Source: a virus
Lineage: Duplodnaviria > Heunggongvirae > Uroviricota > Caudoviricetes
Length of the DNA stretch: 64,000 bases
Virus record (IMG/VR): IMGVR_UViG_3300030618_000005
Strand: one strand, 5' to 3'
Below, piece by piece: positions 5,721 to 44,975 of this stretch. The notes below the pieces were generated by a model. The model was not told the DNA's origin. It ran no database searches and saw only the letters and a list, made by a program, of their open reading frames with translations. The first letter of the stretch is position 1, and every line of letters begins with the position of its first letter. The position numbers and the translations under genes are program-made.

Positions 5721-6965
5721 CTATCTCCTTTTCGTTAGAAGTGCGCCTTGGAACTGAGCCATCGTATCGCCTTCTGGCCGCCCCTTGACAAAAGAGGTCG
5801 CCTGTGCTAGGGAATCCTCCGGGTAAAAGCGTTGGTACAGCTTGATCTTCTGATCGTCGGTCGCTTGACCAAGGTGCAGAAGTACATCGATCCGACCGGG
5901 CCTAATCAACGCCGGGTCCAGATTGTCGAGATGGTTCGTGGTCATGATGTAGATCACGCCGCTAGGGGCATGAAAGCCATCGAGAACATTCAGTAACCCA
6001 GATAGTGTAACACCAAACAGCTTCTCGTGTCCATCACTATCTTCAACTTTGTTCGGGTGGGGTCCGGGTGTTACGCCTTCCTTCCACTCCTGATCCCTTG
6101 GGCCGTCATTAGTGGCCTTGCGTTTCTTGCCAGCACCAGATGCGTCGATGTCCTCGAACATGATGATCGAACCTTCGGGCACAGTGCTTATCGCAGTCTT
6201 CAATCCCTTGTCACTCAGGTCACCAAGGTTCATCAGGTAAATGTCCCGGCTCAGTTGGTACGCTAACCCTGACGCCAAGGATGTCTTGCCGGTCCCCGGA
6301 GGCCCATAGAAGGCGTAGCCACGATGGTAAGGGATACCCAGCTCCCTATAGCGTTCCTTGTCGCCTAGGAACTCGTTTACGTCTTGCAGCAGTTTCTCCT
6401 TCTCCTGCCCGTCGAGCACCACGGACTCAAACGTACGCGGCGAATAGCTCCTCAGCTTTATCCAGTACTCGTCCCACACATACAGCTTGCTCTCACTACG
6501 CTCAGCCTCTTTGTGAATCTCGATGATCTCGGTAACGAACTGCTTGATGCGTTCCTGCCTGCGGCCAATCGTGCTGAAGGAGATTGTCTCACTCCTCTTC
6601 GCGTCCCAGCCGCCCTTCTTATCCTCGCTCCGCGTGTAGTTCAGCCAGAATGGTAGACGCTTGTGCCAGAAGAAGTGCTCCCCCGGCGCGGGCATCAGAG
6701 AGATGAGCTTGCCACGGATGGTCGAGTCAAGATCGACGCGGCGTACACGCGGCATGAATTTCTGCTTGGTGATCCACTCCTTCACCCAAAGAAAGGAAGG
6801 GTCGTCGTCCTTCACTGTTACGCTTACGAGTACTTGTCGTTTGAACCAGAGCCAAATCATCTGCGGCACTGATTTCATGTAGGCCATCACACCACCCATA
6901 ACTAGAAGCATTGCTCCACTGGCGGTAAACTGATTCAACATCTCAGGTGGTAGCCCTATGAGCAT
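5721..6965 (-). CDS. BCS1-like AAA+ ATPase with N-terminal transmembrane segment
   Basis: Walker A GPPGTGKTS, Walker B IIMFEDIDAS, GVTLSGLLNVLDG, PALIRPGRID; N-terminal TM. Confidence 0.75.
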   Translation of the reverse strand: MLIGLPPEMLNQFTASGAMLLVMGGVMAYMKSVPQMIWLWFKRQVLVSVTVKDDDPSFLWVKEWITKQKFMPRVRRVDLDSTIRGKLISLMPAPGEHFFWHKRLPFWLNYTRSEDKKGGWDAKRSETISFSTIGRRQERIKQFVTEIIEIHKEAERSESKLYVWDEYWIKLRSYSPRTFESVVLDGQEKEKLLQDVNEFLGDKERYRELGIPYHRGYAFYGPPGTGKTSLASGLAYQLSRDIYLMNLGDLSDKGLKTAISTVPEGSIIMFEDIDASGAGKKRKATNDGPRDQEWKEGVTPGPHPNKVEDSDGHEKLFGVTLSGLLNVLDGFHAPSGVIYIMTTNHLDNLDPALIRPGRIDVLLHLGQATDDQKIKLYQRFYPEDSLAQATSFVKGRPEGDTMAQFQGALLTKRR

Positions 6966-16013: not shown

Positions 16014-16220
16014 TTAGAGATTCAGGCTGGTGATGGTTGAGTCGATGGCCTTTTGCTCACGGTTCTTACGCCACGAGTTGAAACGTTGAAGGAACTCTGG
16101 GCCGCCACTAATAGCGTACCACAAGTAAAAGAACGTTATTATGGGACCGACAACGAAGTAGAAGAGACCCCAGCCTATCGCCACGTGCATGAGGTCTCGT
16201 AGTGTGATGGCGTGGCCCAT
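16014..16220 (-). CDS. small membrane protein
   Basis: two hydrophobic helices. Confidence 0.35.
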   Translation of the reverse strand: MGHAITLRDLMHVAIGWGLFYFVVGPIITFFYLWYAISGGPEFLQRFNSWRKNREQKAIDSTITSLNL

Positions 16221-17797
16221 TAGTCCCTGATCTTTCTACCTGAACCCGCGAAGACGGGGCCGGTGATGTCGCTGTTATCCTTACGCGTGGTCTCATCGTG
16301 GTAGTAGGTGCCCACCTTGGATGCACTCAGATAGCGTCCAGATGCCTCTAGGCGCGTCTTCTCAAGTGTGGCGGCGTCAGAGATGGCTGACGGTACGATG
16401 TACGTTGCAGCCTTCGCCAGTGTCCAGTTGAGCATGTCTGCCTTCTTGCAGCAGTCACGAATCTCAGCGCCCGTCCAGTTCTCGCTCGGTGGGTTCGGTT
16501 CGTCGTTGACGAGTCCGTGGTTGCGGCGTTGGATGGCCCAGATTTCATCGCGCTCTGACGCATTCGGAGAGTCAAAGAAGAACTTGACGAGAGAGAAGCG
16601 GCGGCGAAGCTCAGGCGGTAGGTTGGCGATGCCGTTGCAGGTAGCGATGCAGAGCACGTTGCCACTGCTGATGGCGTCGATGGTCTTGGTCGCGGTGCGC
16701 AGGTTGTGGCCAGAGTTACCGACGTGCATGTCTTGCATGGCGGCGATGTCGAAGACGATGACGGGCTTGTTGTAGGTGGCTCCCAGACTCTTGGCCAGTT
16801 GCGACTTGGACACGCCGGGGATGCCGATGCTCAGCGCACCATTGACGCCCTTGTCTTCCATCCACGAGAGGATGATACCGTTCATTTCCGTCTTGGTGCC
16901 CGACGAGTCCGTACCGTTACCGGCCATCTGCTTCTCGATCTCGTCGATGAAGAGGATGACTTCAGGCGCGTTCTTGCCGGTCATGACGGCCCGGTAGAAC
17001 TCTTTGGCACTCTCGATGCCTCCGATGTCATCCAGCGTCTCCTTGCCCTTGTAGACGGTCAGGCCGGGGGTAGCGTTGATGATCTGGCGCTTGCGCTCCC
17101 AGAGGTCGGTGATGCTGAGGGTGCCTTTACGGATGGACTCCTTCTCCTTGCCCGGTATCTTCTCAGTGGTCAGGCACATCGCGGTCGCCTGATCTGCACT
17201 GAAGGACGAGAGACCGATGAGCGCGTCGACTGCCGACTTCTCGATGTCGGTGGTCAGAGATGCCTCGGCGTTCGCGCTCTTGAACGTATTGCGTACGATC
17301 ACCGCAAGCTCTTCACGTGTGGGCAGTGGTTCATCAAGCACAAGCACGTCCGTCTGAAGCTCGATGGGCAGAGTCGCGCCGGGTGTGCTGACGAGCACGA
17401 GCATGTTACCCACGTTCTTGTAGATGTCTCGCAGGTTCCACACGGCCTGTACGTTGGTGGGGTCACCCCAGAGCAGATGCGCGTTAGAGATAAACACGAT
17501 CATGTCGCTGACGCCATCCGTCTCCAGAGCCTTCAGTGTCTCAGGCAACTGTACCGTCTCAGGTGTCTCAAGTCCGGCCTTCGCCATGAGTGTGGCGTAT
17601 GCTTCCTTGCTGGCCTTGGTGTTGTTCATTGGCAGGAGACCGTGGACAGAATCCCAGATGAGCATAGGCGTGCTATCGAGGGTGCCGTTCAGTGCTGCAC
17701 TGATATTGCGGGTGAGTCCCTTGGCATCGAACGTACGCATGTTGATGATGGGAGTGGAGACGCGGCGGGCGGCCTTGAACTGTTGGATGAAATCCAT
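16220..17797 (-). CDS. AAA+ ATPase-like protein with rearranged, degenerate motifs; ends GRKIRD
   Basis: ILFIDEIEK..MEDKG (Walker B region), GIPGVSKSQLAKSLG (degenerate Walker A), IATCN, LPPELRRRF. Confidence 0.5.
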   Translation of the reverse strand: MDFIQQFKAARRVSTPIINMRTFDAKGLTRNISAALNGTLDSTPMLIWDSVHGLLPMNNTKASKEAYATLMAKAGLETPETVQLPETLKALETDGVSDMIVFISNAHLLWGDPTNVQAVWNLRDIYKNVGNMLVLVSTPGATLPIELQTDVLVLDEPLPTREELAVIVRNTFKSANAEASLTTDIEKSAVDALIGLSSFSADQATAMCLTTEKIPGKEKESIRKGTLSITDLWERKRQIINATPGLTVYKGKETLDDIGGIESAKEFYRAVMTGKNAPEVILFIDEIEKQMAGNGTDSSGTKTEMNGIILSWMEDKGVNGALSIGIPGVSKSQLAKSLGATYNKPVIVFDIAAMQDMHVGNSGHNLRTATKTIDAISSGNVLCIATCNGIANLPPELRRRFSLVKFFFDSPNASERDEIWAIQRRNHGLVNDEPNPPSENWTGAEIRDCCKKADMLNWTLAKAATYIVPSAISDAATLEKTRLEASGRYLSASKVGTYYHDETTRKDNSDITGPVFAGSGRKIRD

Positions 17798-20793: not shown

Positions 20794-21435
20794 TTATTCT
20801 CCTTTGCCACGCACTACAATCCAACAAATAGCCTGTAACTCCGCTGGTTCGAATCCCAACTTTGCAGCTACATTCTGGTACGCCTTTTCAAGCGTATCGT
20901 ATGCGTAACCCGGACGCGTAGCAGCTTGCACAAGTCGCGCTGTTTCCTCTGCTATTTGTTCGTCTGTTGCGCCTTTGGGTAATCGGGCCTTGCATCCTGC
21001 TGCACGTGCGGCCCAAACGTCACAAGTGACGCGCTGTAAGTCTCCGCATAGGTTGGCATAGAATCGTGTAACCTTCGGACCTGAGACGCGCTGTAAACTA
21101 TCCCCATTAGCGATATCCCACGCCTTGTCTATGTTTCGATTTAGGCCCGCCATCACGGGGACAATGCGCGAACCAGAGTCAAAGGCCCGCGCAATCTTGC
21201 GTACTCCTATCAAGTTTTCTTGCCACGTGCAACGTGGAGATAATACCGCGCATATAGCAGCGGCCCGTTCCATCCCCCAAAGGCTAACGTACTGCGACAA
21301 TTGCGCTTTTGCATAGGGATACCACGCCTTACCCTCTACAATCTGCGATGCGTTCGCACGGGCAAAGGTGGCCAGTATATGCCGTTCATACTTTTGTTGC
21401 AGCTTGAGATACTTGAGGTGCGTTTTAGATGCCAT
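20794..21435 (-). CDS. hypothetical protein
   Basis: ORF; start uncertain (GTG 21474 or ATG 21435). Confidence 0.4.
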   Translation of the reverse strand: MASKTHLKYLKLQQKYERHILATFARANASQIVEGKAWYPYAKAQLSQYVSLWGMERAAAICAVLSPRCTWQENLIGVRKIARAFDSGSRIVPVMAGLNRNIDKAWDIANGDSLQRVSGPKVTRFYANLCGDLQRVTCDVWAARAAGCKARLPKGATDEQIAEETARLVQAATRPGYAYDTLEKAYQNVAAKLGFEPAELQAICWIVVRGKGE

Positions 21436-21625
21436 CACACACCAACCTTTTTTACGAGTCCACTTCCGCCACACTTAGAGCACGTGTTACTAGACTCCTT
21501 CAAACTACTACCGTACCCGTTACAGTGCGGGCACTGGCTGTATCCATACTTTTGAGGGTCTAGCATAATTTTTATGTCTAACATAGAATCATGCATTGTT
21601 GCGTCTCCTTTAGCCTATATGCTCC

Positions 21626-21693: not shown

Positions 21694-22215
21694 TTAGTAG
21701 CGTACGACTAGGTTAGCAAGGTTAGGCGCAAACTCAGGCAAGGCCAACAATTCGGGGTAATTCTCCACCAGATACCCCACAACAAAGGCCCTTTGGTCTG
21801 CCGGAAAATCATTGTGCTGAATGAAAAACTCACCTTGCCCGATTACTTCAGCCACAATCAACGCAATCCACCGCGCTTTGTCATACAAAGACGGCCCGTC
21901 TAACGCGAGTACCTGAGTAGCTTGCAAGGATGCGGCCCGTTTCTCACCCTCAAACGTAAAATCCGCATTGGCTAGAATGTGGCAAGCATCATGCCATGCA
22001 CGAAATTGCCAATTTGTAACGGGTGAACCAAAGATGGTTTTATCAGAGTGATTTACATTGATTTTGATGCGGCCCGTTGCCTCAAAGTCGCTCTTCATCT
22101 CTGCGAAGTCTGCGTAATCAGACGCAGTATAGGAGATGGCCTTAGGTGCGAGTAAAGAAACGATGTAGTCGAAGGTTGGATCAATTCCGCCAATTGCTAC
22201 GCCTGTATCGAACAT
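21694..22215 (-). CDS. hypothetical protein
   Basis: 173 aa ORF. Confidence 0.4.
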   Translation of the reverse strand: MFDTGVAIGGIDPTFDYIVSLLAPKAISYTASDYADFAEMKSDFEATGRIKINVNHSDKTIFGSPVTNWQFRAWHDACHILANADFTFEGEKRAASLQATQVLALDGPSLYDKARWIALIVAEVIGQGEFFIQHNDFPADQRAFVVGYLVENYPELLALPEFAPNLANLVVRY

Positions 22216-23382: not shown

Positions 23383-23405
23383 TGCGTAAGCTCCTTTATC
23401 TAGGG

Positions 23406-23540
23406 TTAGTAACGTTCAATCGAAACAACATGGTTATCGTCCATAAGGTCAGACGCGATGCGGTTGGCAACGGCGAGAGAATCAGCCCAATACTCATGCA
23501 ACTCTTCGCTATACCAGTAGTGAAATTCAACCTTATACAT
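23406..23540 (-). CDS. small hypothetical protein (44 aa)
   Basis: Internal ATG with same conserved leader. Confidence 0.3.
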   Translation of the reverse strand: MYKVEFHYWYSEELHEYWADSLAVANRIASDLMDDNHVVSIERY

Positions 23541-23585
23541 TGCGTAAGCTCCTTGTGAAGTTTGATTGCAGAGACAGAATAGCAC

Positions 23586-23609
23586 GGGGGACTGTGGAAA
23601 ACATCCCCC
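23586..23609 (-). terminator. hairpin GGGGGA..TCCCCC after 23617..23991
   Basis: 6-bp GC stem plus 12-nt loop, U-rich-ish tail. Confidence 0.3.
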
Positions 23610-23616
23610 ATTCGGG

Positions 23617-23991
23617 TTACTTCTCTTTTTTGCCGTATACCGCATCTAACAGACAAGTTTGCGCCTTGTCTATGTAATCGCGGGCCTTGTTTGCACTAAC
23701 CCATCCCGCTGTTTCAGCGTCGCACGCGCTATTAGGCGCATTTAGGATATCCCCCCATATCGATGTTAGTTCATCATTGGCAACGGTTAGGGGATTCTCA
23801 GGGATACGTGTATCAACGTACTCCTTACGGTATGACTCCGCCTCTAAGGTTGTCCCAAAGTCGTGGCCAACCTGAAACGGCTTATCTTGTTTGATGGCCT
23901 TGCGAATCCCGCGATTTAGTTCTCTTTTGTTGCGTACGGGATACGTTGTGCCGATACCGGGGGAGTGAAAAACTGTAATCGAATAGGCCAT
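23617..23991 (-). CDS. hypothetical protein
   Basis: Same conserved leader at start. Confidence 0.4.
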   Translation of the reverse strand: MAYSITVFHSPGIGTTYPVRNKRELNRGIRKAIKQDKPFQVGHDFGTTLEAESYRKEYVDTRIPENPLTVANDELTSIWGDILNAPNSACDAETAGWVSANKARDYIDKAQTCLLDAVYGKKEK

Positions 23992-24615
23992 TGCGTAAGC
24001 TCCTTATGAATTGACTACTCGATAAGCCTATCATGAGACGGCCCGCGTGCAACATCTATTTTTAGATTTGTTTATCCCACGTTTGGGTGAGCATCTGAGA
24101 TTTAGCGCGTATCAATATATAGAGCAAAATCGTGCGAATGCCTAGCAATTACAAGGCCAAACGAGTTTTCCTACCACATTTGAAAACTGTGGAAAACGCA
24201 TTAGACGGCCTACACGCGGCCCGCGTTTCGTCAAGCTAGGGTAAGACGTTCGATTTTTCCGATAGCGTGGCGGGCCTGCTAGGTGGCAAGGATTCAATTT
24301 CACTTTCGCCTTTTGTTCGCCCTAAAAGAGCATAAAAAGCGAAGATGCGGCCCGTAACTCCTTTAGAATTGCATACGCACCTATTAGCGTCTCAATTCAT
24401 CTTTTTTCATCTCAAATGCAGACTTTGGCCCGTCACGTGCTGCCAGCAAGTCGAGTGCCAAACACCGGGCAGTTGTCAAGTTTTATGTCAGAAAAATGCG
24501 GCGATATCCTAACGTCCAATTGCGTACTGTATACGCCTATAGACCAAAGGCCCGCCGCATTGCGAAGCTTGAGACGCTATAGAGCATAGGCGAATGACAA
24601 TCGCTAATCTTCATT

Positions 24616-24827
24616 TGTCTATCTCCAGATGAACGGCCCATCATTGTCTGTCTATCCCTGAATGAACAAAGCCTATCGTCTATCCTGATACACGTATCCA
24701 CAATCTTTCACCTATGCGGTATCAGTTGCCAATATGATATTAGGCCCATCATGCGACCAAGGAGACATAGAGAGATGAGACCAACACAAGGAGACAACCA
24801 AGGCCACCTAAGGCCCGTCTATCTCCA
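24616..24827. repeat. iteron-like direct repeats GTCTATCYCC (at least 4) and CAAGGAGACA (2)
   Basis: Read directly in an ORF-free region. Confidence 0.5.
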
Positions 24828-24996
24828 TAGGCCAATGCCTCTAATCCCCTATAAGACAATCAAAGCCATAGCGCCTTTGTATTGCTTGCCTATGCTCTTC
24901 TATCGCGTCTCTAAGGCGTATCAAATACGCAAGCTTTTGTATCAGTTAGGCGATAGGCCACGCTATTCCGCCACTCGCACGCACGGCCCGCCAGAC

Positions 24997-25010
24997 ACGT
25001 ATTTATACGT
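24997..25010. promoter_or_regulatory. 14-bp palindrome ACGTATTTATACGT
   Basis: Inverse-oriented copies at 25601 and 25666. Confidence 0.4.
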
Positions 25011-25600
25011 TTGTCTGCAATTCCCCATAATGCAGACTGCATAGATAAGACTAATTATTTCAACAACTTACGATACCCTGATCGTGTAAGTCGTTTGGTA
25101 TGTTAGGGGTATGGCCAGTTGTTCATGTGATGCGTGTCAGTGTAGCCGTAAGTCGTTGATAACACAGGGGATAGGGTGTCAAACCAACCCTCTCGACAGG
25201 CCATGCCGGGGAGTCCGCCCGGTACCGGCACGCCAGCTCAAGCTGGTGCGGCCAGAGCCACTAGCAAACCCTTGTCAGTACAAGGGCCTACCTCCTGCCA
25301 CCTCCCCAGCCGACCTACAGCAACACCCCTCAACCAATCGGTTGAATAGGTACCCTTATAGGGGGTCATATCCGGCTACAGGGTGGTAGGGAGGTATGAG
25401 ACGCTAATAGGATGCCTCGTCCTGAGGCTGGCATGGGGGTACACGGGGCTGATGAGTATAGGGAGGTAGGATGGTACCATTTCGGATAGCAAAAAGCACC
25501 TAGGGCATCCTGACACAGTGTCCCCAGAAAGGGGGTGTCTCAAGAACCTAGGTGCTTCGCTTGGGGCATATCGCCCAGAACGCCGTAGTCTAGCCACGGG

Positions 25601-25613
25601 CGTATAAATACGT
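25601..25613. promoter_or_regulatory. palindrome CGTATAAATACGT (copy 2)
   Basis: Repeated 65 bp downstream in a tandem ~67-bp unit. Confidence 0.4.
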
Positions 25614-25665
25614 CTTACAGCTCTCCTCCGCCCAGAGGACAGCAGGCGTATTCAATCTTGGTCAG

Positions 25666-25678
25666 CGTATAAATACGT
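25666..25678. promoter_or_regulatory. palindrome CGTATAAATACGT (copy 3)
   Basis: Tandem with copy 2; both followed by a CCCAGAGG box. Confidence 0.4.
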
Positions 25679-25693
25679 TTGTACGTTTCTGTT

Positions 25694-25903
25694 CTACTTC
25701 TCCCAGAGGTCGAAGGTCTCGTTCAGTCTCTTGGCGATGCTCTGCTTGGTGGCTACCACGGCTGACTGAGCCACTCGTTGTGGGCCGATAATCTCCAACA
25801 TTTCAAGGGTTGCCGGGGGTATGGGTCCGGGTACTTCCAGCTCGGACTCTACGACGGCCAGTGCGATCTCTCGGGCCTTAGCTACGGTGATCTCTCTGCT
25901 CAT
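25694..25903 (-). CDS. hypothetical protein
   Basis: ORF in array. Confidence 0.35.
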   Translation of the reverse strand: MSREITVAKAREIALAVVESELEVPGPIPPATLEMLEIIGPQRVAQSAVVATKQSIAKRLNETFDLWEK

Positions 25904-26094
25904 AGTTCTCCTTTCGGTAGGGCTTTAGAAAAGGCTTCCGGCCAGTCGTAGCGTTCCCTCATCTGGTCGGCGGTCGGGGTGATCCTGAAGGCGGATTGGA
26001 AGAGGGGTGACTTGGCGGTCGGTCGCGGCGGCCAGTCGTTCAGGGTCTCGGCTATGTCAGGAGTGAGGCACTTACTGGGGCACTTGGCACTCAT
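25900..26094 (-). CDS. hypothetical protein
   Basis: ORF in array. Confidence 0.3.
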   Translation of the reverse strand: MSAKCPSKCLTPDIAETLNDWPPRPTAKSPLFQSAFRITPTADQMRERYDWPEAFSKALPKGEL

Positions 26095-26447
26095 AACCCG
26101 GCACCGTCCGGCTGCTCCTTGGAGTTGTATCGATCAATCTCTGCCTCTGGTAGACCAATGCCCCTGTACTTGTTCTCCCGGCTGAAGGGTGGCTTCTTGC
26201 CGCCGTAGGGGTTGGTGTACATATAAGGCCACTTGGCTGCAACCTTAGTCCTGCCGGGGATCGGATCGGACCATGATAGTGCTACGGTGAATCCTAGGTC
26301 AGACAGGAGCTTGTACCGGTCCATGGCAGTGAACAGGCCTACGTCCATAGCCTTGGTGCTGCGTGCCCACGTAGGAAATTTTCGGTGGCCTGCCCAGTAC
26401 CATACGGTGAACCGTTGGCCCAGTACCTTTGCTCCTGTCTGAGTCAT
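26091..26447 (-). CDS. hypothetical protein
   Basis: Internal start MTQTGAKV; upstream extension is frame junk. Confidence 0.4.
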   Translation of the reverse strand: MTQTGAKVLGQRFTVWYWAGHRKFPTWARSTKAMDVGLFTAMDRYKLLSDLGFTVALSWSDPIPGRTKVAAKWPYMYTNPYGGKKPPFSRENKYRGIGLPEAEIDRYNSKEQPDGAGL

Positions 26448-26448
26448 C

Positions 26449-26670
26449 TCAGTACTTCTCCTCGGCCTGAGCCATCTGTTTGAACTTGTTGGGTGTGTCG
26501 GTGAGGGCGTTGGGTTCGTACCCGGAGTGCATCCCACAGACCTTGCAGTAAGAGAACATGTGGGCACGTCCCTCTTCAGTTCCCCATACGCGGACTTGGA
26601 TGTCCTTGGGCAGGCAGTCCGGGCGGCAGTGACGCGCACCCGGATTCGCGGCTTTGGTCTTTTCGAACAA
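26449..26670 (-). CDS. zinc-ribbon hypothetical protein
   Basis: TTG start coupled to upstream stop; HCRPDC..CKVCG. Confidence 0.35.
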   Translation of the reverse strand: MFEKTKAANPGARHCRPDCLPKDIQVRVWGTEEGRAHMFSYCKVCGMHSGYEPNALTDTPNKFKQMAQAEEKY

Positions 26671-26671
26671 G

Positions 26672-27220
26672 TTAGTAGAGTCCCGAGTTGTCGCCGTTGT
26701 CCGTGTCGGTGGTACCGAAGTGGGGGTTGCCGTCGTCGGAGAAGGCGTCGTGAGCTGCTTGGTCGGCGTCTTCGAGTCCTTGGCGGTAGGCCGCGTTGAT
26801 GCGTACATCCGACTCAGGCACGTAGATCAGGTCGCCGTCTTCGTCCTCGTCGAGAACGTAGTTGTTCACGTCGGCGTAGATGCCAAGCTGCTCTTCGGTC
26901 GAGGACGCGATGGAGTCCAAGGTGTCTGCTACTTCGGCCACGTGCTGAGCGATATGCTCGGCTCCGTCGAGTGTGGCGTGTACCTGTGCGTGGAGAAGTT
27001 CCAGCTCGGTCTCCTTCAGCTCGTTCGACTTGGCCAACTGCGCGGCGAGTTCAAACAAAGCACCGACCTGAGCTGCGGCGATGTAGCCCTCACGGTCTTC
27101 GGAGGCTCTAACGTTGGTGACAGTGATGAAGGTGTTCTGCATTTCCATTACTTCTGCTGATGTACGCAAGGTGATCTCTTTTCTGGCCGGTGGCCTACTT
27201 CTGGTTTCTGCTACGCTCAT
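26672..27220 (-). CDS. acidic hypothetical protein
   Basis: D/E-rich C-terminus. Confidence 0.4.
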   Translation of the reverse strand: MSVAETRSRPPARKEITLRTSAEVMEMQNTFITVTNVRASEDREGYIAAAQVGALFELAAQLAKSNELKETELELLHAQVHATLDGAEHIAQHVAEVADTLDSIASSTEEQLGIYADVNNYVLDEDEDGDLIYVPESDVRINAAYRQGLEDADQAAHDAFSDDGNPHFGTTDTDNGDNSGLY

Positions 27221-27551
27221 GGTGACGGAAGATGATCTCCGCAGTTCTTGCTAAGATAGCTACCGGCCTCGTACCTTCGGCATCCCAGCTCTGGTCCTTC
27301 CAGCCTTCCGAGAAGCCTTCGACAGGGCAATTGCCACCGCTTGTTTTTGTGGCTTCCCGGCTGCCTTCTCGGTCTTTATATTCGATGATATGGTGGATTG
27401 TGATGTTCCGGTCTTTAGTGGCATCGCCCTTCTCCTGTTGTTGCGCATCCTCGCGCAAAATCTTACTGAGTACTATGGAGCTGGAAGCCGGAATGAATCC
27501 ATTGGTCCGTACAGCCTCCAGAAGCTCTCGGTGCTTTTCACTCATTCCCAT
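27195..27551 (-). CDS. hypothetical protein
   Basis: ORF in array. Confidence 0.4.
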   Translation of the reverse strand: MGMSEKHRELLEAVRTNGFIPASSSIVLSKILREDAQQQEKGDATKDRNITIHHIIEYKDREGSREATKTSGGNCPVEGFSEGWKDQSWDAEGTRPVAILARTAEIIFRHHERSRNQK

Positions 27552-27566
27552 TTCTGAATAGTACTC

Positions 27567-27911
27567 CTATTCGTCCAATCCGTCAAGCTCTCTGTTTACC
27601 TGCTCGTTGTTGAACTTGGTGTACACCTTCTGGCCGTCGAACTCGACCACATTGTCCTCGAAGGGACTCTCCGCGCCGGGGCCGTAGATGGAAGGACCGA
27701 ATACGTGCATAAGTTGGTACAGGGACATCTCGTGGTAGCCGTCCGAGTCCGGCACTATGACCTGCAACGGATGGCGCTGCTTTATGCTAGGCGCTTTCTG
27801 TTTCAGAGCTTGGTAGCCCTGTTGCAGGTACCTGTAATAGATTTCCAGACCAATCGTGTTGAGACGGACGCGCACGTAGTCATTGGTGTTGTACTTGTGA
27901 TACTCAGGCAT
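27567..27911 (-). CDS. hypothetical protein
   Basis: ORF in array. Confidence 0.4.
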   Translation of the reverse strand: MPEYHKYNTNDYVRVRLNTIGLEIYYRYLQQGYQALKQKAPSIKQRHPLQVIVPDSDGYHEMSLYQLMHVFGPSIYGPGAESPFEDNVVEFDGQKVYTKFNNEQVNRELDGLDE

Positions 27912-33264: not shown

Positions 33265-33543
33265 TCAGGAGAGCCATTTACCGTCGTCTTTCTTTTTCTT
33301 GCTGCGTACCTTATCGATCTCGTCGATAACGGAACCCACTATTGCGAAGATCAACGCTGCCAGAATAAACAGCAACGACAGTGCCACCAGTACCGATATC
33401 GGTCCCCACAGGGGTATGAACACAATCCACCATGAATGCGGGAAGAACCCAGCAAGTTTAGCGACGACAAAAATCAAGGTCAAAATAGAGAAGAACGGAA
33501 ACGAACTCTTGCCGCCTTTTACCAACTGCTCTTGTCCAGACAT
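33265..33543 (-). CDS. membrane protein (3 TM)
   Basis: hydrophobic helices; AAGGAG RBS. Confidence 0.45.
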   Translation of the reverse strand: MSGQEQLVKGGKSSFPFFSILTLIFVVAKLAGFFPHSWWIVFIPLWGPISVLVALSLLFILAALIFAIVGSVIDEIDKVRSKKKKDDGKWLS

Positions 33544-33564
33544 ACATCTCCTTTATAAACCCTC

Positions 33565-33965
33565 GCCAGTGACAACCCCAATCACCCGCCGACCGACCCC
33601 ATGAAAATCCATTCGTCAGCCTTCCCACGTAAATGTTTAGACTGGGGGATCGCTCCCCCTTCTGTTGCTAGGCCCGTCAAGAGGCCCCAGCGGTTATTAG
33701 GCCGCAAGTAGCTGTGCTGCAACAACGCTCTTGCGAACGCTGAAACGGACACGGCTGTGGCTGACACTTTCGGTGACAGTTCTTTTTTTCCAGCAGTCAA
33801 GGTCGCTAGGCACCTGCACAGTCCACTCTTCTATCTGTATCCGTCGAAGCCGTGACATCCCCGTATGCGGTACGCTTACGAGATTGTTTTGGTGGAGATG
33901 GCGAGAGTCGAACTCGCGTCCGTCTACCGACTTTGGAGCTTCATACCATGCGTAACTTTTTGAAT
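33565..33965 (-). ncRNA. ssrA: circularly permuted (two-piece) tmRNA-like gene
   Basis: See first finding: E. coli-like 3-prime T-arm/acceptor with encoded CCA, GGGGAUG 5-prime end with G3:U70, tag frame ..AAQLLAA-UAA-UAA. Confidence 0.6.
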
Positions 33966-33993
33966 TGTATCAAACTTGATCGGTCTTGTCAAC
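33964..33993 (-). promoter_or_regulatory. sigma70-like promoter TTGACA-17-TACAAT for the tmRNA acceptor piece
   Basis: Consensus hexamers with 17-bp spacer, read on minus strand. Confidence 0.5.
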
Positions 33994-34438: not shown

Positions 34439-37135
34439 TCATTTTTTCCAACACTCCGCGATGTTCGAATCGAACTCCATGACCACTGCTGTCATCTTCA
34501 CCGCTGCGGCCCGCTTGAATGCGTCACCGATCAGCTTTGCTACCTCAGTGGCTTTGTGCTTAGGACATTGTACCACAAGCTCGTCATGCACCATCTTGAT
34601 GAGACGCGCACGGAAGGTGGGAAGAGTATGCCACAGGTACGGCACTCCGTCCTTGTCGAACCCACAACCGCCCGCCAGCTTGATGATCGTGGCGTTCGTA
34701 CCCTGAATGGCGTGGTTCTTTCCTTGGCGCTCGATAGAGCCTGACATCGCGCCCATTGCCTTACCGATCTCTTTCTGAGTCGGCTGGTTGTGCTCGATGA
34801 ACCACAGCTCTTCTTTGTCCGGCTTGCGGTTGTTGTTCTTGACGAAGAGGTCGTACTTCAATTGTGCCTCTTCAGGTGACAATCTCAGCTTCTCTTCGTT
34901 GTCAACCTTCGCCTTCTCCTTCGCACGATCCCACGTGGGGTCTGGGAAGAGACGACGCCGACCGTACATATCGAACGAGCGTTTCTTCATGTAGGCATTC
35001 TTGCCAGACTGCTCAAGGTATGCCCAGATGCGCGGGAACTTCTTGGAGTGCAGCTCCATCAGCTCAGCGGCCTTCTCGACCGTCTTGCCGATTGATTGCG
35101 CGAGTTTGCTTGGGCCGCCGCCGTACGCCAGCAGGAAGTTCGTGCTCTTGTTTTCGTTCCTCAGCTCAGCGTGTCCTTTGCATTTGCACTTCTGCCGCGC
35201 CGGTTCGCCGTTCTCTTTTTTCGCATAGTACTTGCAGCCGGGTTCAGTAAGGACTACCCAGCCCTGCTCGTGCAGAATCTCAGTGCCTACAGAGTGAACG
35301 TCCTCGCCGCGACCGAAAGCACCGATCCACACCGGGTCTTGTGCCAGCTCCGCGATGATACGAAGCTCCGCGCCGGACATATCGGCGGTGATGATTACAT
35401 ACTCTTCTGCGTGGGTGTTACAAAGCTCTCCGCAGGCGGAGCACCTAAATCCGGGCACAGAGAAGTCCGCAACATAGATGCCCTCACGAGGAGGCGCGTC
35501 AGCATTGCAGCAATCAGAAACACGTATGGACTCGTTAGGAGGATCAGCAATAAAACAGGAGCGAACTGCTTCGTCCTGCGGTAGGTTCTGGCCATTAGGT
35601 TTCTCCGATGAGGAACGCCCAGTCTCAGCATCGTACTGGTTGTAGACGCAATGCAGACGCCCGTCGCCGGGGTGCAACCACCCTTCCTCTTTGCATGGCT
35701 TGCCCGTCCACTCTGTAGCCCACTGGTATCCGTACGTCCCGATCTCCTTGGAAAGAGTGTGAAGCTTACGGATTGAACCGCAGATAGCGAAACCCTTGGC
35801 CTCATACTTCGCCAGTGTGTCATCGTCGCACTTCTTCATCGACTTGAGGCCCTTGATCTCTTGTAGGGCCGCTAATAGCTGGGAATCGCTACTGTAGTTG
35901 ATGAGTGCTGCGCCTTCGCACTTGGCGGCGAGGTTTTTGATCTTCGTCCGCTTCTTTTTCATGTCGCTGTGCTCGGTCTTCAGCGTCTCCTTCAAGTCCT
36001 TACGCTGTTGCTCAAGCAGAGCCTTTTGCATTTCGAGGTGCGCCATCGCCGCAGTGTCGCCCGCCTTCTTGTAGACCGCGATCTGTTTCTTCAGCTCCAG
36101 CTCAGCCGGGGAGACGACGTTGAACGCCTTCCACTGCGCTTCCTTCGCATCGATCTCAGCATCAGTATTTATGTCGTACTTGCTGCCGACGAGAGGGATG
36201 AAGTACGGGTCGAGCGAGTCGCTATAGAGCGCGGTCAGCTCGGCTATCTTGCCGTCGATACGCTTGCGCCACTTCTCCTTGTCCATGCGCTCACCGTGGA
36301 TGTGCATGTCCTCGAACATGCCGATGGCGTCATTCTCGATCTGGACAATCTCGTTGAGATTGTCGCCCATGACGATAGGCTCGTTGCTGGAGTTCTTAGG
36401 CTCAAGGTTCTCCATGAACTTGGCCATCGGGCTGCCCTTCTCTTTGAGAGTCTTCAGGCGAATGCCGGACGCGACGACCTTCTGGGCCATCATGATGTTC
36501 AGTGGGAACCGCGTATCGAGTGCGGCGTATTTGATCTGACCCGGCTCAAGCACTGCGTCGAGAGTGAACGATTCCTGATACTGTTTGTCCACAGTCTTTC
36601 GGAAGTAACGCTCCATCATCTCGTTCATGGAGTAGTAGCCGTAGTCCTTCATCGAGTGCGCCCCGGCCCAGATGCACTTCTCCGCCATCGAGCAATCGTA
36701 GTAGTTGTACGTGCGCAGGCCGAAGTTCCAGTAGAAGGTCATGTACTCGAAGCCGAGATTCACGCCGACCTTCAGGAAGTTTCGAGAGCACAACACAGGC
36801 TCCAATATGAGCATCAACTCTTTGAGCTTTGGAGGAAGGTTCGCGCCGTACTGACCTTGGCATGAGAAGAGTAGGTTCGGATCGTTGTCGCAGAAGGGCA
36901 AGAGGTCGATCACGTACTGCTCGACGTTGTTACCAAACTGGACAGTACGGCAGCGCCGGAAGAAGTAGTCCTTCAACGGGGTCGTTTCAACGTCCCATCC
37001 GAGTACACCTTTGTCGTTCGCTTGGACACGCGCAAAGAAATCCTGAAGAGAAGCAAGCTCTTCGAGGCTCTGGATGAAAGTAACTTTGAGTGGGGGCGTG
37101 AGTGTTTCTATGTCAATCGGGGTGATTGGCTGCAA
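34439..37135 (-). CDS. family A DNA polymerase with 3-5 exonuclease domain and Cys-rich insertion
   Basis: Exo VLGWDVETT; YNQ..TGRSSS..PNGQNLP; DMSGAELRIIA; NKSTNFLLAYGGG; HDELVVQ. Confidence 0.9.
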   Translation of the reverse strand: MQPITPIDIETLTPPLKVTFIQSLEELASLQDFFARVQANDKGVLGWDVETTPLKDYFFRRCRTVQFGNNVEQYVIDLLPFCDNDPNLLFSCQGQYGANLPPKLKELMLILEPVLCSRNFLKVGVNLGFEYMTFYWNFGLRTYNYYDCSMAEKCIWAGAHSMKDYGYYSMNEMMERYFRKTVDKQYQESFTLDAVLEPGQIKYAALDTRFPLNIMMAQKVVASGIRLKTLKEKGSPMAKFMENLEPKNSSNEPIVMGDNLNEIVQIENDAIGMFEDMHIHGERMDKEKWRKRIDGKIAELTALYSDSLDPYFIPLVGSKYDINTDAEIDAKEAQWKAFNVVSPAELELKKQIAVYKKAGDTAAMAHLEMQKALLEQQRKDLKETLKTEHSDMKKKRTKIKNLAAKCEGAALINYSSDSQLLAALQEIKGLKSMKKCDDDTLAKYEAKGFAICGSIRKLHTLSKEIGTYGYQWATEWTGKPCKEEGWLHPGDGRLHCVYNQYDAETGRSSSEKPNGQNLPQDEAVRSCFIADPPNESIRVSDCCNADAPPREGIYVADFSVPGFRCSACGELCNTHAEEYVIITADMSGAELRIIAELAQDPVWIGAFGRGEDVHSVGTEILHEQGWVVLTEPGCKYYAKKENGEPARQKCKCKGHAELRNENKSTNFLLAYGGGPSKLAQSIGKTVEKAAELMELHSKKFPRIWAYLEQSGKNAYMKKRSFDMYGRRRLFPDPTWDRAKEKAKVDNEEKLRLSPEEAQLKYDLFVKNNNRKPDKEELWFIEHNQPTQKEIGKAMGAMSGSIERQGKNHAIQGTNATIIKLAGGCGFDKDGVPYLWHTLPTFRARLIKMVHDELVVQCPKHKATEVAKLIGDAFKRAAAVKMTAVVMEFDSNIAECWKK

Positions 37136-38953: not shown

Positions 38954-39077
38954 TTGCGGGTAGCTCAGCGGTAGAGCATTCGGCTGTGCGAGATGTGGAA
39001 CGCCACGCTCCAGTGCAACTCTGGAATCTCGAAAAGTAACCGAACGGTCGCTGGTTCGATCCCAGCCCCGTGAGCCA
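38954..39077 (+). tRNA. atypical tRNA-like gene with 49-nt structured insertion in anticodon arm
   Basis: Canonical acceptor, D-arm, T-arm and encoded CCA; anticodon stem TTCGG/CCGAA encloses a 56-nt three-way junction. Confidence 0.45.
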
Positions 39078-42938: not shown

Positions 42939-44975
42939 ATGAAGCTTCAGAAACTACGAGACCTAATCGCCTCGTGTAAGACGAACCCGAACTATCAGTT
43001 CCGTGAAACAAGTAACGAAGATATCCTCGCGTTGGCCAAGAAGAGCTTTTCGAAGCTCACTGACGGTCAGCGCGAGAAGGTTTATGCGTCATGGAAACGT
43101 GCGCTAGACATGAACAAGGAGGCGCTGGACGACTCAACCGGTGAGCTATTGCTCATCGCTCGATTCATGGCCCAGACCAACCTGTTCTTCATGTGTCACC
43201 TGTTGGAAACCTACAACAAGGTCACCGTGAATACCCACGAAGAAATTTGCAACAAGTTTTTCGTGCAGAAGAACCCGACTTTCGTAACAGTAGAGAAGTT
43301 TGCCAACCAGTATACTGACCTCAAGGATCGAATGTTGCTAGTCCCACGAGGCGGGTTCAAATCTTCTATCGACATTGCAGACGTGGTTCAGTGGGTGAGT
43401 TGCTACCCCGCGATTACCATTCTGATCCTGACGGGTGTGTTCGACCTCGCCAGTGACTTCCTCGGAGAAGTCAAGAACCACTTCACTCTCATAGAGTCGC
43501 AGAAGCTCGACACCAAGACCGGCAAGCCGGTACTCGTGCCCAAGCTCTTCTTCGACGAAGAGACAGAGGAATGGTCTGAAAGCATGTTCCAAACGTTGTT
43601 CCCTGAGCACTGTGTTCCTCCAGCCTCAGGCACTCAGTTCGAGTATCACTCCCCAGCGCAGGGCGATCAGAAAGAGCCAACCGTGAAGGCCGCGTCCATC
43701 GGACAAGCCCTCGTCGGTAAGCACTTTGACGTGATGAAGCTGGACGACGTTATCACGAACGAGAACAGTCAAACCGTTGACCGTTTGAAGAAAATCGCTA
43801 AGCAGATCAGTATTGATCGAGCCATGCTTCACCCTTACGGATTCATGGACGTAATCGGCACGTGGTACGACGAGAAGGACTACTACGGCGAGAAGATCAA
43901 GCAGCAGGAAACGTTCATCAAGGAAGAGGGTCTGTCGAACCTCATCACTGGCAGCGTTGACTCCGGGCGACTGAACATCGAGTACAAGACCAAGACCTAC
44001 CTTCGAGCCGCAATGTGGCTCACCGATCAAGCGATCAAGGAAGGCAAGACCGACGTAGACGCCAAAGGTCCAGACTATGAACTCTGGTTCCCTGAGCGTC
44101 TGCCTTTTAGCTTTTTGTATGATGAGAGAAAGACGGACCCGGAAGGGTTCGCCATCAAGTACCTCAACAACCCGAGAAAGATCAACCGTATCAAGTTCGA
44201 GCGTGCCCTTCTGATGAAGCGCACTATCCCGCACAACATGCTGCCGCCGCAAGGCGTCGTCGTGACGACAGTAGACACAGCGTATTCAACAAAGTCATGG
44301 GCCGATTACACCGTTATCCTGACCACGCTGATATATGGCGGGCGTTTCTACATCCTCAACATGGTGCGCGGACGATTCAACGAGATCGAGCTGCCTGCGG
44401 TTATCGCCAACACAGCGTACAAATGGAAGCCTAAGCGAATCGCCATCGAAGACTCGGTGGGCGTGAAGTGGATGGGACGCGAACTCCGTCGAGAGATGGA
44501 CAAGCTGCAAATCAGCATTCCGATTGAGTACTGCTCTCTGGGCCTCGGCAAGAAGTCTAACTCGAAACAGATGAAAGCCAAGCCGGTACTCCGACTGCTT
44601 GGCGACGAGCGTATGTTCTTCCTCAACTCCTGCGAAGGGTTGAACGAACTCTACAACGAACTCGAAGCCTTCACGGGCACCAGCGACGACACACACGACG
44701 ACATTATCTCCGCACTATCCCTATTGGTTGAGCAGTTCATCTCTTATGCCGATGTGGGATCGAAAGTGGACATGGTGAACTCGCAGTATGTTGCAGATCA
44801 ACAGAACCACGAACGTCATCAACTCGTACACGGTATTGGCAAGTATGCTCACATGAACATAAAGGCCCAGCTCGTGAATGATGACAACCCGGTGACTGCG
44901 TTCCAGATCGACAACAGCCGTATGTTCCGCGATGAGCCAATGGGCACTGACCCGTTTGCCGATCTATTCAACTAA
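42939..44975 (+). CDS. terL: terminase large subunit
   Basis: N-terminal ATPase block LLVPRGGFKSS; RNaseH-like nuclease block VVTTVDTAYST..HDDIISALSL; RMFRDEP near C-terminus. Confidence 0.85.
   Translation: MKLQKLRDLIASCKTNPNYQFRETSNEDILALAKKSFSKLTDGQREKVYASWKRALDMNKEALDDSTGELLLIARFMAQTNLFFMCHLLETYNKVTVNTHEEICNKFFVQKNPTFVTVEKFANQYTDLKDRMLLVPRGGFKSSIDIADVVQWVSCYPAITILILTGVFDLASDFLGEVKNHFTLIESQKLDTKTGKPVLVPKLFFDEETEEWSESMFQTLFPEHCVPPASGTQFEYHSPAQGDQKEPTVKAASIGQALVGKHFDVMKLDDVITNENSQTVDRLKKIAKQISIDRAMLHPYGFMDVIGTWYDEKDYYGEKIKQQETFIKEEGLSNLITGSVDSGRLNIEYKTKTYLRAAMWLTDQAIKEGKTDVDAKGPDYELWFPERLPFSFLYDERKTDPEGFAIKYLNNPRKINRIKFERALLMKRTIPHNMLPPQGVVVTTVDTAYSTKSWADYTVILTTLIYGGRFYILNMVRGRFNEIELPAVIANTAYKWKPKRIAIEDSVGVKWMGRELRREMDKLQISIPIEYCSLGLGKKSNSKQMKAKPVLRLLGDERMFFLNSCEGLNELYNELEAFTGTSDDTHDDIISALSLLVEQFISYADVGSKVDMVNSQYVADQQNHERHQLVHGIGKYAHMNIKAQLVNDDNPVTAFQIDNSRMFRDEPMGTDPFADLFN

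Follow-up and report, generated by a model that had tools for sequence, protein, structure and literature searches.

The stretch analysed here, IMG/VR record IMGVR_UViG_3300030618_000005 (64,000 nucleotides, hereafter the window), is phage DNA in which the genes run on the minus strand from position 1 to approximately 37.1 kb and on the plus strand beyond. Its products include a family-A DNA polymerase (34439-37135), a large terminase (TerL, 42939-44975) and an SU10-type portal, and the window also carries tRNAs and a permuted transfer-messenger RNA (tmRNA). In an earlier note, a region of this DNA without open reading frames (ORFs) had been described as a hub of iteron-like repeats, palindromes and G-rich structured sequence, the candidates being an origin of replication with operator sites, an invertible or regulated promoter region, or a large structured non-coding RNA (ncRNA). 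This region corresponds to the gap 23992-25693 between two genes that are co-oriented on the minus strand, an upstream gene of 69 amino acids (aa) with its stop codon at 25694 and a first downstream gene of 124 aa with its ATG at 23991. The analysis presented here indicates that the gap is probably a multipartite cis-acting DNA hub and not an ncRNA gene and, more tentatively, that its conserved core may be a replication origin. As a whole, the earlier observation was largely right, and needed only small corrections on the repeats, the tandem unit and the structure.

The sole annotated relative at the DNA level was Tunturiibacter phage Tunturi_3 (PP885686), a 97.6-kb podovirus that infects an acidobacterium (PMC11924767). 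A gene adjoining the gap was present on about 60 contigs and, since the longest of these measured 96,992 bp, the window phage should have a genome of about 97 kb, similar in size to that of Tunturi_3. The latter carries an unannotated and syntenic gap of 1.66 kb between gp120 and gp121, with conserved islands that are colinear with those of the window. Further relatives were fetched as contigs through homologues of a DUF7178 protein encoded near the gap, and five of them (L139, L141, L144, L145 and L146) displayed a gene-free gap of 1.1-1.7 kb located 2-4 kb upstream of the DUF7178 gene. No related loci were obtained from IMG/VR with the DUF7178 protein as the single query. These five, Tunturi_3 and the window are the seven phages compared below. 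Four other contigs of related phages (L138, L140, L142 and L143; 43-93 kb) stop 0.3-2.3 kb upstream of the DUF7178 gene, before the gap, and the gap and early-gene region seems to be hard to assemble throughout this phage group. None of the genes directly flanking the gap (ten small genes tested, at 23406-23991 and 25694-27911) had a homologue in the six relatives, the nearest conserved genes being those at 21694-22215 and 20794-21474 (DUF7178). The DUF7178 and TerL proteins were 42-62% identical between relatives, with a value of 62% for TerL of the window and Tunturi_3.

The absence of convincing genes in the gap was confirmed. The longest ORFs encoded 97 aa (24751-25044, plus strand) and 92 aa (25111-25389, plus strand). 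In public assemblies, gene callers place an 89-aa gene at 24775-25044 (plus strand), but its product, which is rich in Arg and Pro, gave no Pfam match and, in tblastn against the related phages, nothing at E<0.27. Matches of the 92-aa ORF to the relatives were due solely to the DNA conservation of the core, and the core displayed neither 3-base periodicity nor a frame open in all seven phages.

All six relatives contained one block (approximately 25028-25260 in the window) at 62-73% identity. The features of this part of the gap are the following (those listed without a strand have none assigned):

25051-25272: conserved core (island 4), approximately 220-230 bp, conserved as primary sequence in the seven phages.
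Within the core: AT block CTAATTATTTCAACAACTTAC, with TTATTTTCAATAAC as its conserved part, from the alignment.
25086 and 25148: two copies of GTAAGTCGTT (GTAAGTCGTTGAT boxes), from the alignment.
25182: AACCAACCCT, from the alignment.
25211: GAGTCCGC, from the alignment.
25235-25253: AGCTCAAGCTGGTGCGGCC, from the alignment.
25013-25037: hairpin with a 7-bp stem (GTCTGCA / TGCAGAC) and an 11-nt loop, identified by covariation.

The core also showed a conserved AGCT.AAGCTGGTG.GGCC. All these motifs were single-copy in the 64-kb window and are, therefore, not dispersed promoters. Because the flanking genes lack homologues and the DUF7178 and TerL proteins are only 42-62% identical, the non-coding core is under stronger constraint than its neighbours, and the fact that a single-copy non-coding core outlasts the neighbouring genes suggests an essential site read by conserved machinery, either for replication or for packaging. 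When a collection of 185,579 species genomes was scanned with the core pattern, only one chance match, in a cyanobacterial metagenome-assembled genome, was obtained. Since there was no true match in this collection, the core is not host-derived and is not a prophage or attP-type sequence at the stringency of the scan.

The hairpin was conserved as a structure. Its stem differed in every phage (GTACACA/TGTGTAC, GTCCTCA/TGAGGAC and CTGTGT/GCACAG in relatives), while the loop (ATAC..CRTAAT) was kept. Five of the 11 pairs changed on both sides, 83% (plus strand) and 88% (minus strand) of the alignment cells were paired, no shuffle out of 500 reached the covariation score, and the alifold z-score was extreme with respect to column shuffles. 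Pairing was slightly better on the gene-sense (minus) strand (7 versus 3 G-U pairs). The core itself had no significant consensus fold when compared with column shuffles (z of -1.0 and -1.7). The GC minimum of the gap (36%, at 25000-25099) was located at the hairpin and AT block.

Around the core, the gap carries direct repeats and palindromes:

24617, 24650, 24678 and 24817 (span 24617-24827), plus strand: four GTCTATC direct repeats, lineage-specific.
24040-24990, plus strand: nine GGCCC[G/A] boxes (seven of them GGCCCG) in a single orientation.
24997-25010: palindromic box 1, ACGTATTTATACGT, abutting the conserved hairpin.
25600-25613 and 25665-25678: palindromic boxes 2 and 3, GCGTATAAATACGT, between the stop codon (25694) and the terminator described below.

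The first of these repeats had been read as GTCTATCYCC in at least four copies. The exact 10-mer was found only twice in the gap, but the 7-mer GTCTATC occurred four times, whereas the remainder of the window predicts 0.07. A second direct repeat, CAAGGAGACA, was indeed present twice, although 10-mers in two copies are near chance. GGCCCG, a motif absent from the earlier description, occurred seven times on the plus strand (0.7 expected), so that both motifs were enriched 10- to 50-fold. Between 24100 and 25600, GGCCC[G/A] was found eight times on the plus and once on the minus strand and, being common only to the window and L144, it is lineage-specific. At the place equivalent to that of GTCTATC, Tunturi_3 carries repeats of its own (four tandem copies of a 13-bp unit, which recurs inverted at a distance of 680 bp, and two copies of an 18-bp unit), and so does L144 (CACGCGGCCCGCC four to five times and GCCATGCACAC three times). 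The middle of the window gap also holds a 19-bp inverted pair. All the oriented direct repeats (GTCTATC, GGCCC[G/A] and the six G-boxes described below) are 7-11 bp long and irregularly spaced.

In agreement with the earlier note, three exact copies of the palindrome CGTATAAATACG were found, at 25601 and 25666 and, in reverse orientation, at 24998, and the 64 kb contained no other. With up to two mismatches, there were nine strand-matches (five distinct sites) against 2.2 expected, a number that none of 100 shuffles reached. At the spot of box 1, the relatives carry other palindromes or tandem boxes. The tandem unit of 67 bp proposed for boxes 2 and 3 does represent a duplication, but a loose one: the boxes are spaced by 65 bp, and the next 24-nt segment is 75% identical at a spacing of 71 bp. 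This 65-71-bp duplication reaches the 3' end of the 69-aa upstream gene, and its second CCCAGAGG (25702-25709) falls inside that gene.

To the right of the core, two further features were identified:

25491-25557, minus strand: intrinsic terminator of the upstream (PolA-side) transcription unit, with outer arms 25557-25547 / 25504-25494 followed by UUUUU (25495-25491).
25356-25570, plus strand: G-box array, approximately [A/T]AGGG[G/T/A]G(G)T, with copies at 25360, 25380, 25388, 25460 and 25530, plus one at 25173 inside the core.

With regard to the G-rich structured segment previously reported, the G-richness was real and the 11-bp inverted repeat (25494-25504 / 25547-25557) exact, but the segment was not structured in general. 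In fact, sliding-window RNAfold z-scores over the gap were no better than those of the coding flanks, and the one strong fold was the inverted repeat noted before (AGCACCTAGG), which is the minus-strand terminator. Its hairpin had a minimum free energy of -40.2 kcal/mol (z = -5.6, none of 200 shuffles being as stable) and lies approximately 137 nt past the stop codon at 25694. Since the hairpin precedes a U tract and both follow a gene of the same strand, the element is an intrinsic (Rho-independent) terminator. A hairpin plus T-run was present at comparable sites in L144 (canonical), L139 and Tunturi_3 (weak).

The G-box consensus was roughly ATAGGG[G/T]GGT[C/A], and the array includes a further element, GGTACCAT, at 25473. 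In the gap, the G-box occurred six times on the plus strand and never on the minus strand, versus 11 and 8 times, respectively, elsewhere in the 64 kb. In this same orientation, three to nine copies were present in six of the seven phages, and L139 had a G-rich variant outside the pattern. A stretch of 200-400 bp rich in G-runs on the plus strand was common to all seven. Two interpretations of this composition were discarded. There was no canonical G-quadruplex motif in the window gap and the picture was inconsistent among the relatives; and T7-primase pentamers (GGGTC, GTGTC and TGGTC), although enriched 2.4-fold on the G-rich strand, were explained by composition.

The left half of the gap presented the following features:

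24590-24604: island 3 palindrome, GCGAATGACAATCGC (CGAATGACATTCG in Tunturi_3), inside the conserved block 24584-24617.
24185-24374: island 2, approximately 190 bp, with TTCGCC-N6-TTCGCC (24305-24320) and an inverted GCGAAG (24338-24343).
24107-24124: island 1, (GCGT)ATCAATATATAGAG, an AT-rich box with a 17-nt block identical in Tunturi_3.
24025-24052, minus strand: promoter-like site for the first downstream gene, with -35 TTGCAC (24052-24047), a 16-nt spacer with TG and -10 TAGGCT (24030-24025).
24104-24754: strain-variable patch with two haplotypes approximately 6% apart.

Island 3 was 79% identical to Tunturi_3 over 52 bp, and its arms are conserved and not covarying, which is what an operator-type protein site would show. 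Island 2 was 70% identical to Tunturi_3 and 67% to L139, while the match in L145 (62%) covered only 24067-24320. It scored equally in all six frames. In all five phages having this island, the TTCGC pairs were 11 bp apart, a spacing of one helical turn. Its main stem was invariant, with a covariation term of +2.1 kcal/mol, and an RNA fold was thus not supported. Island 1 was found in the form ATC[A/T]ATATA[T/C]AG at an equivalent relative position in five of the seven phages. Scans of IMG/VR with the strings of islands 1 and 2 as DNA patterns yielded only chance matches, and the scan of a single metagenome returned only the window phage itself (L125).

The promoter-like site was read from the sequence and is below the scanner threshold in the window. 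In L139 and L141, TTGACA-17-TATTCT (10/12) follows island 1 at a distance of 43 nt, and in Tunturi_3 a TTGACA does so at 45 nt. A promoter for the first downstream gene is thus plausible at the left end. The AAGGAG ribosome binding site (RBS) of this gene lies at 24005-24000. The regulated promoter region proposed earlier is supported in part, by the promoter-like site and by the operator-like palindromes. Scans for sigma-70-type promoters disclosed no site conserved next to the core, and those for plus-strand terminators nothing conserved. A near-identical 22-nt block, TTCA[C/T]AAGGAGCTTACGCAATG, that comprises an RBS and start codon, precedes two adjacent genes on the minus strand (23541-23562 and 23989-24010). 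The differences of strain contigs L131, L152 and L153 clustered in 24104-24754, leaving the conserved blocks of island 2 unchanged, and the strain contigs fell into no more than two haplotypes, a number insufficient for covariation. The same three contigs showed mosaicism over 23397-24754, some strains having swapped the first downstream gene (124 aa) for a different gene of 69 aa.

On the basis of this anatomy and conservation, we infer that the origin with operator sites is a viable candidate and the one to be favoured. A gene-free gap of like size and position is kept in Tunturi_3 and the five metagenomic relatives, as is the core, and the short repeats of the gap are enriched, oriented and placed beside the GC minimum, with the relatives having their own sets at the equivalent place. 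The strength of the terminator and the failure of the RNA alternatives likewise favour a DNA-level hub. T7/T4-like replisomes start at non-coding origins with promoters or AT-rich segments. The replisome genes of this group are of that kind, with the family-A polymerase in the window and a T7-type primase-helicase plus UvsX in Tunturi_3. It is on the oriented repeats by the GC minimum, the structure-conserved hairpin, the lineage-specific arrays and the T7/T4-like replisome that an origin is favoured. In such a model, the hairpin, the AT-rich block, island 4 and the G-boxes would form the site read by the conserved replication machinery; the lineage-specific repeats and the palindromes would act as iteron- or operator-like protein sites, the AT-rich block as an unwinding element, and the left end would drive early transcription. 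The gap lies between two co-oriented minus-strand transcription units, the upstream one ending at the 25491-25557 terminator.

Several observations weigh against an origin. No initiator-like gene (Rep, O or DnaA-type) adjoins the gap, the ten flanking ORFs being without informative Pfam or PHROG matches; the repeats, with their 7-13 bp and irregular spacing, differ from classical iterons of 17-22 bp; and neither the window nor the complete genome of Tunturi_3 had a turning point of GC skew at the gap. Nor is a transcription-primed start apparent, because no sigma-70-type promoter is conserved beside the core. Moreover, the anatomy of the gap fits a terminal-repeat junction about equally well.

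Comparison with known origins illustrates both sides. Iteron origins, such as lambda ori, P4 ori/crr and those of theta plasmids, have in common with the gap the oriented short repeats by an AT-rich block, the single-copy nature and the lineage specificity of the repeats. In contrast, the repeats of the gap are shorter and irregular, there is no adjacent or enclosing initiator gene, and a long core is conserved across lineages. With the transcription-primed or R-loop origins (T4 oriF and oriG, the T7 primary origin and ColE1), the gap shares its non-coding nature and an AT-rich segment beside a stretch that is G-rich on one strand, and the replisome is T7/T4-like, with UvsX. If the stretch were transcribed rightward, the G-rich composition of its plus strand would help to stabilise an RNA-DNA hybrid. 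Unlike those origins, however, the gap has no conserved promoter into the G-rich stretch and no conserved canonical G-quadruplex.

The main alternative, nearly as probable as an origin, is that the gap marks the physical ends of the genome. It would then be a concatemer junction of the T7/N4 type, made up of a direct terminal repeat, flanking short-repeat arrays and terminase or processing signals (the core and hairpin), with early promoters for the host polymerase, and then early genes, lying beyond it. The co-oriented flanks, with the upstream unit terminating at the right edge, and the promoter-like site before small, low-GC and strain-variable genes on the left are consistent with this layout. 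The Tunturi_3 genome also resembles that of N4 in layout, since its early/replication block runs leftward, its structural block is opposed to this and a short arm with PolA leads into the gap. Its virion is that of a podovirus (PMC11924767). A site for a conserved terminase (TerL being 62% identical to that of Tunturi_3) would account for the conservation of the core. Furthermore, a passage of PMC4281155 that cites Chung and Hinkle 1990 reports a DNA hairpin intermediate in the processing of the T7 terminal repeat, and a processing hairpin of this kind would explain a stem conserved as structure.

The T7 junction and left end (V01146) consist of a right repeat array, the 160-bp terminal repeat, a left repeat array, promoters A1-A3 and gene 0.3. 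When circularised, this junction likewise has approximately 1.16 kb that are gene-free, with short-repeat arrays and G/C runs. The two systems share a gene-free segment (about 1.2-1.7 kb) between co-oriented genes, with short direct repeats and G/C runs, then host-type promoter(s) and small early genes, which are putative in the case of the gap, and both belong to podoviruses with a family-A polymerase and a primase-helicase. However, no phage RNA polymerase is annotated in Tunturi_3, the G-runs of the gap are on the antisense strand only, and the sequence similarity is at chance level. In fact, the sharing of 8-10-mers between the gaps and the T7 junction was not above the T7 genome background (the junction window scored 18 and 20, the mean being 9, and was not the top window), so that homology to T7, including the shared ATAGGGGGTA, was rejected and the resemblance is one of style only. 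The left end of phiEco32 was also rejected as a model, as its layout differs and has the terminase near the end.

Other data do not help to place the ends at the gap. A terminal repeat is invisible in circular assemblies, and all the genomes were assembled as circles (PMC11924767). Contigs of the window phage break at 24103, 24636 and 24755, but these are the borders of strain-variable patches and therefore mark no common physical end. In a test for a terminal repeat, the 28-mer at the start of locus L158 was found only once in the 98.6-kb contig 3300048502_000040 (IMG/VR), and the limits of that locus may be storage limits. Finally, outside the family, even the closest relatives of TerL show 21-24% identity and are uninformative on the packaging type.

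We consider it unlikely that the gap is purely a transcription-control spacer with no role in replication or packaging, in which the upstream terminator would be followed by a C-rich segment for Rho loading or antitermination with a nut-like hairpin, operators for lineage-specific regulators and an early promoter. Such a spacer would be in keeping with the strong terminator, the promoter-like site (with a -35 TTGACA in three relatives), the palindromes with conserved arms, the TTCGC boxes at 11-bp spacing, a hairpin that pairs slightly better in gene sense (88% versus 83% of cells) and the C-richness of the gene-sense strand over the G-box array. Nevertheless, a core of 220 bp at 62-73% identity is not expected for the regulation of flanking genes that are not homologous, a strong terminator precedes the C-rich array, and there is no conserved promoter near the core. 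Lambdoid nut sites consist of boxA and a boxB hairpin, and the gap resembles them in that a conserved linear block (TTATTTTCAATAAC) lies approximately 15-20 nt from a hairpin with a phage-variable stem. In contrast to nut, the loop of the gap hairpin is of 11 nt and conserved, and the strand is uncertain. We know of no N-like protein in Tunturi_3-like phages.

The large structured ncRNA put forward in the earlier note was not borne out, since there was no Rfam match, only one covarying hairpin and no consensus fold in the core. Infernal with all 4227 Rfam models, GOLLD and ROOL included, gave zero matches at E<=10 in 23800-25900, and the Rfam matches across the window were tRNAs and the tmRNA, all outside the gap. 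In the gaps of the six relatives, none reached the gathering score, the only matches being a tmRNA and a tRNA outside the L144 gap. RNAalifold on the seven phages returned only the 11-pair hairpin on either strand, and no conserved promoter-terminator pair framing an RNA gene was found on either strand. It seems improbable, then, that the gap makes ncRNA, be it a gene-sense RNA of approximately 1 kb, from the 25491 terminator to a hairpin-plus-T-run at 24492-24559 and bearing UGACCCCCUAU-type protein-sponge motifs, or a small RNA from island 2. The conservation at the nucleotide level in all six frames, the slight gene-sense preference of the covarying hairpin, a one-strand motif repeated three to nine times in six of the seven phages and the second minus-strand hairpin plus T5 at 24492-24559 are compatible with such products, and the consensus energy of island 2 was below that of column shuffles (z of approximately -4 on both strands). 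On the other hand, fold z-scores were otherwise unexceptional, the island 2 stem never covaries, and changes at 24499 and 24501 in the second haplotype disrupt the minus-strand stem 24497-24559.

A bolder version, to which we give still less weight, would have the core and G-boxes transcribed in gene sense as an RNA of approximately 1 kb whose three to nine UGACCCCCUAU / UACCACCCUAU repeats and conserved-loop hairpin titrate an RNA-binding factor of the host or the phage, or recruit it; or else it would make of the oriented G-boxes a cluster, at a genome end, of host-specific recognition sites (Chi-like or primase-type). If true, a sponge RNA of this sort would represent a repeat-motif kind not catalogued in Rfam. 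Lastly, an invertible switch at 25011-25600, whose inversion junction would read CCAGACACGTATTTATACGCCCGTGGCTAGAC, is largely refuted and we give it almost no credence, for although exact 13-bp inverted repeats lie at 24997 and 25601 and two contigs end at 25615, beside the right box, the ten contigs covering the segment wholly or for the most part were all colinear with the window and in its orientation, the relatives keep the internal order and orientation without matching flanking inverted repeats, and the ten flanking ORFs tested contained no recombinase or invertase domain.

Some observations were made outside the gap. The permuted (two-piece) tmRNA of the window lies at 33697-33952 on the minus strand (Rfam RF04321, 71 bits; 33491-33985 according to ARAGORN), and relative L144 carries one at 471-711 (RF04321, 79 bits). 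In addition, relatives have a gene with an RF-1 domain (ArfB-like), namely gp125 in Tunturi_3 and 3149-3478 in L139, and the tmRNA plus the ArfB-like gene suggest a ribosome-rescue module carried by this phage group. A 121-nt tRNA-model match at 38954-39074 (plus strand, 47 bits), not called by ARAGORN, may be an intron-containing or degenerate tRNA. The early/replication arm also encodes two AAA-type ATPases on the minus strand (5721-6965 and 16220-17797) that are both kept in relatives, and one of them bears a BCS1 N-terminal domain, unusual in phage.

As a phage control region, the gap had not been described before, but it is of an ordinary kind. No other non-coding DNA of the Tunturi_3-like group is as conserved, and the gap even exceeds the surrounding genes in this respect; for this reason it is the obvious place in which to seek the origin, the genome ends and the early promoter. 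To our knowledge, Acidobacteria phages have been cultured only recently, and the gap offers a useful way into their biology. Were the core an RNA or a new end-protection element, its interest would rise sharply. Tunturi_3 and its host can be cultured, which makes each of the readings considered here directly testable, and the core and hairpin are a ready marker for finding this group of phages in soil metagenomes.

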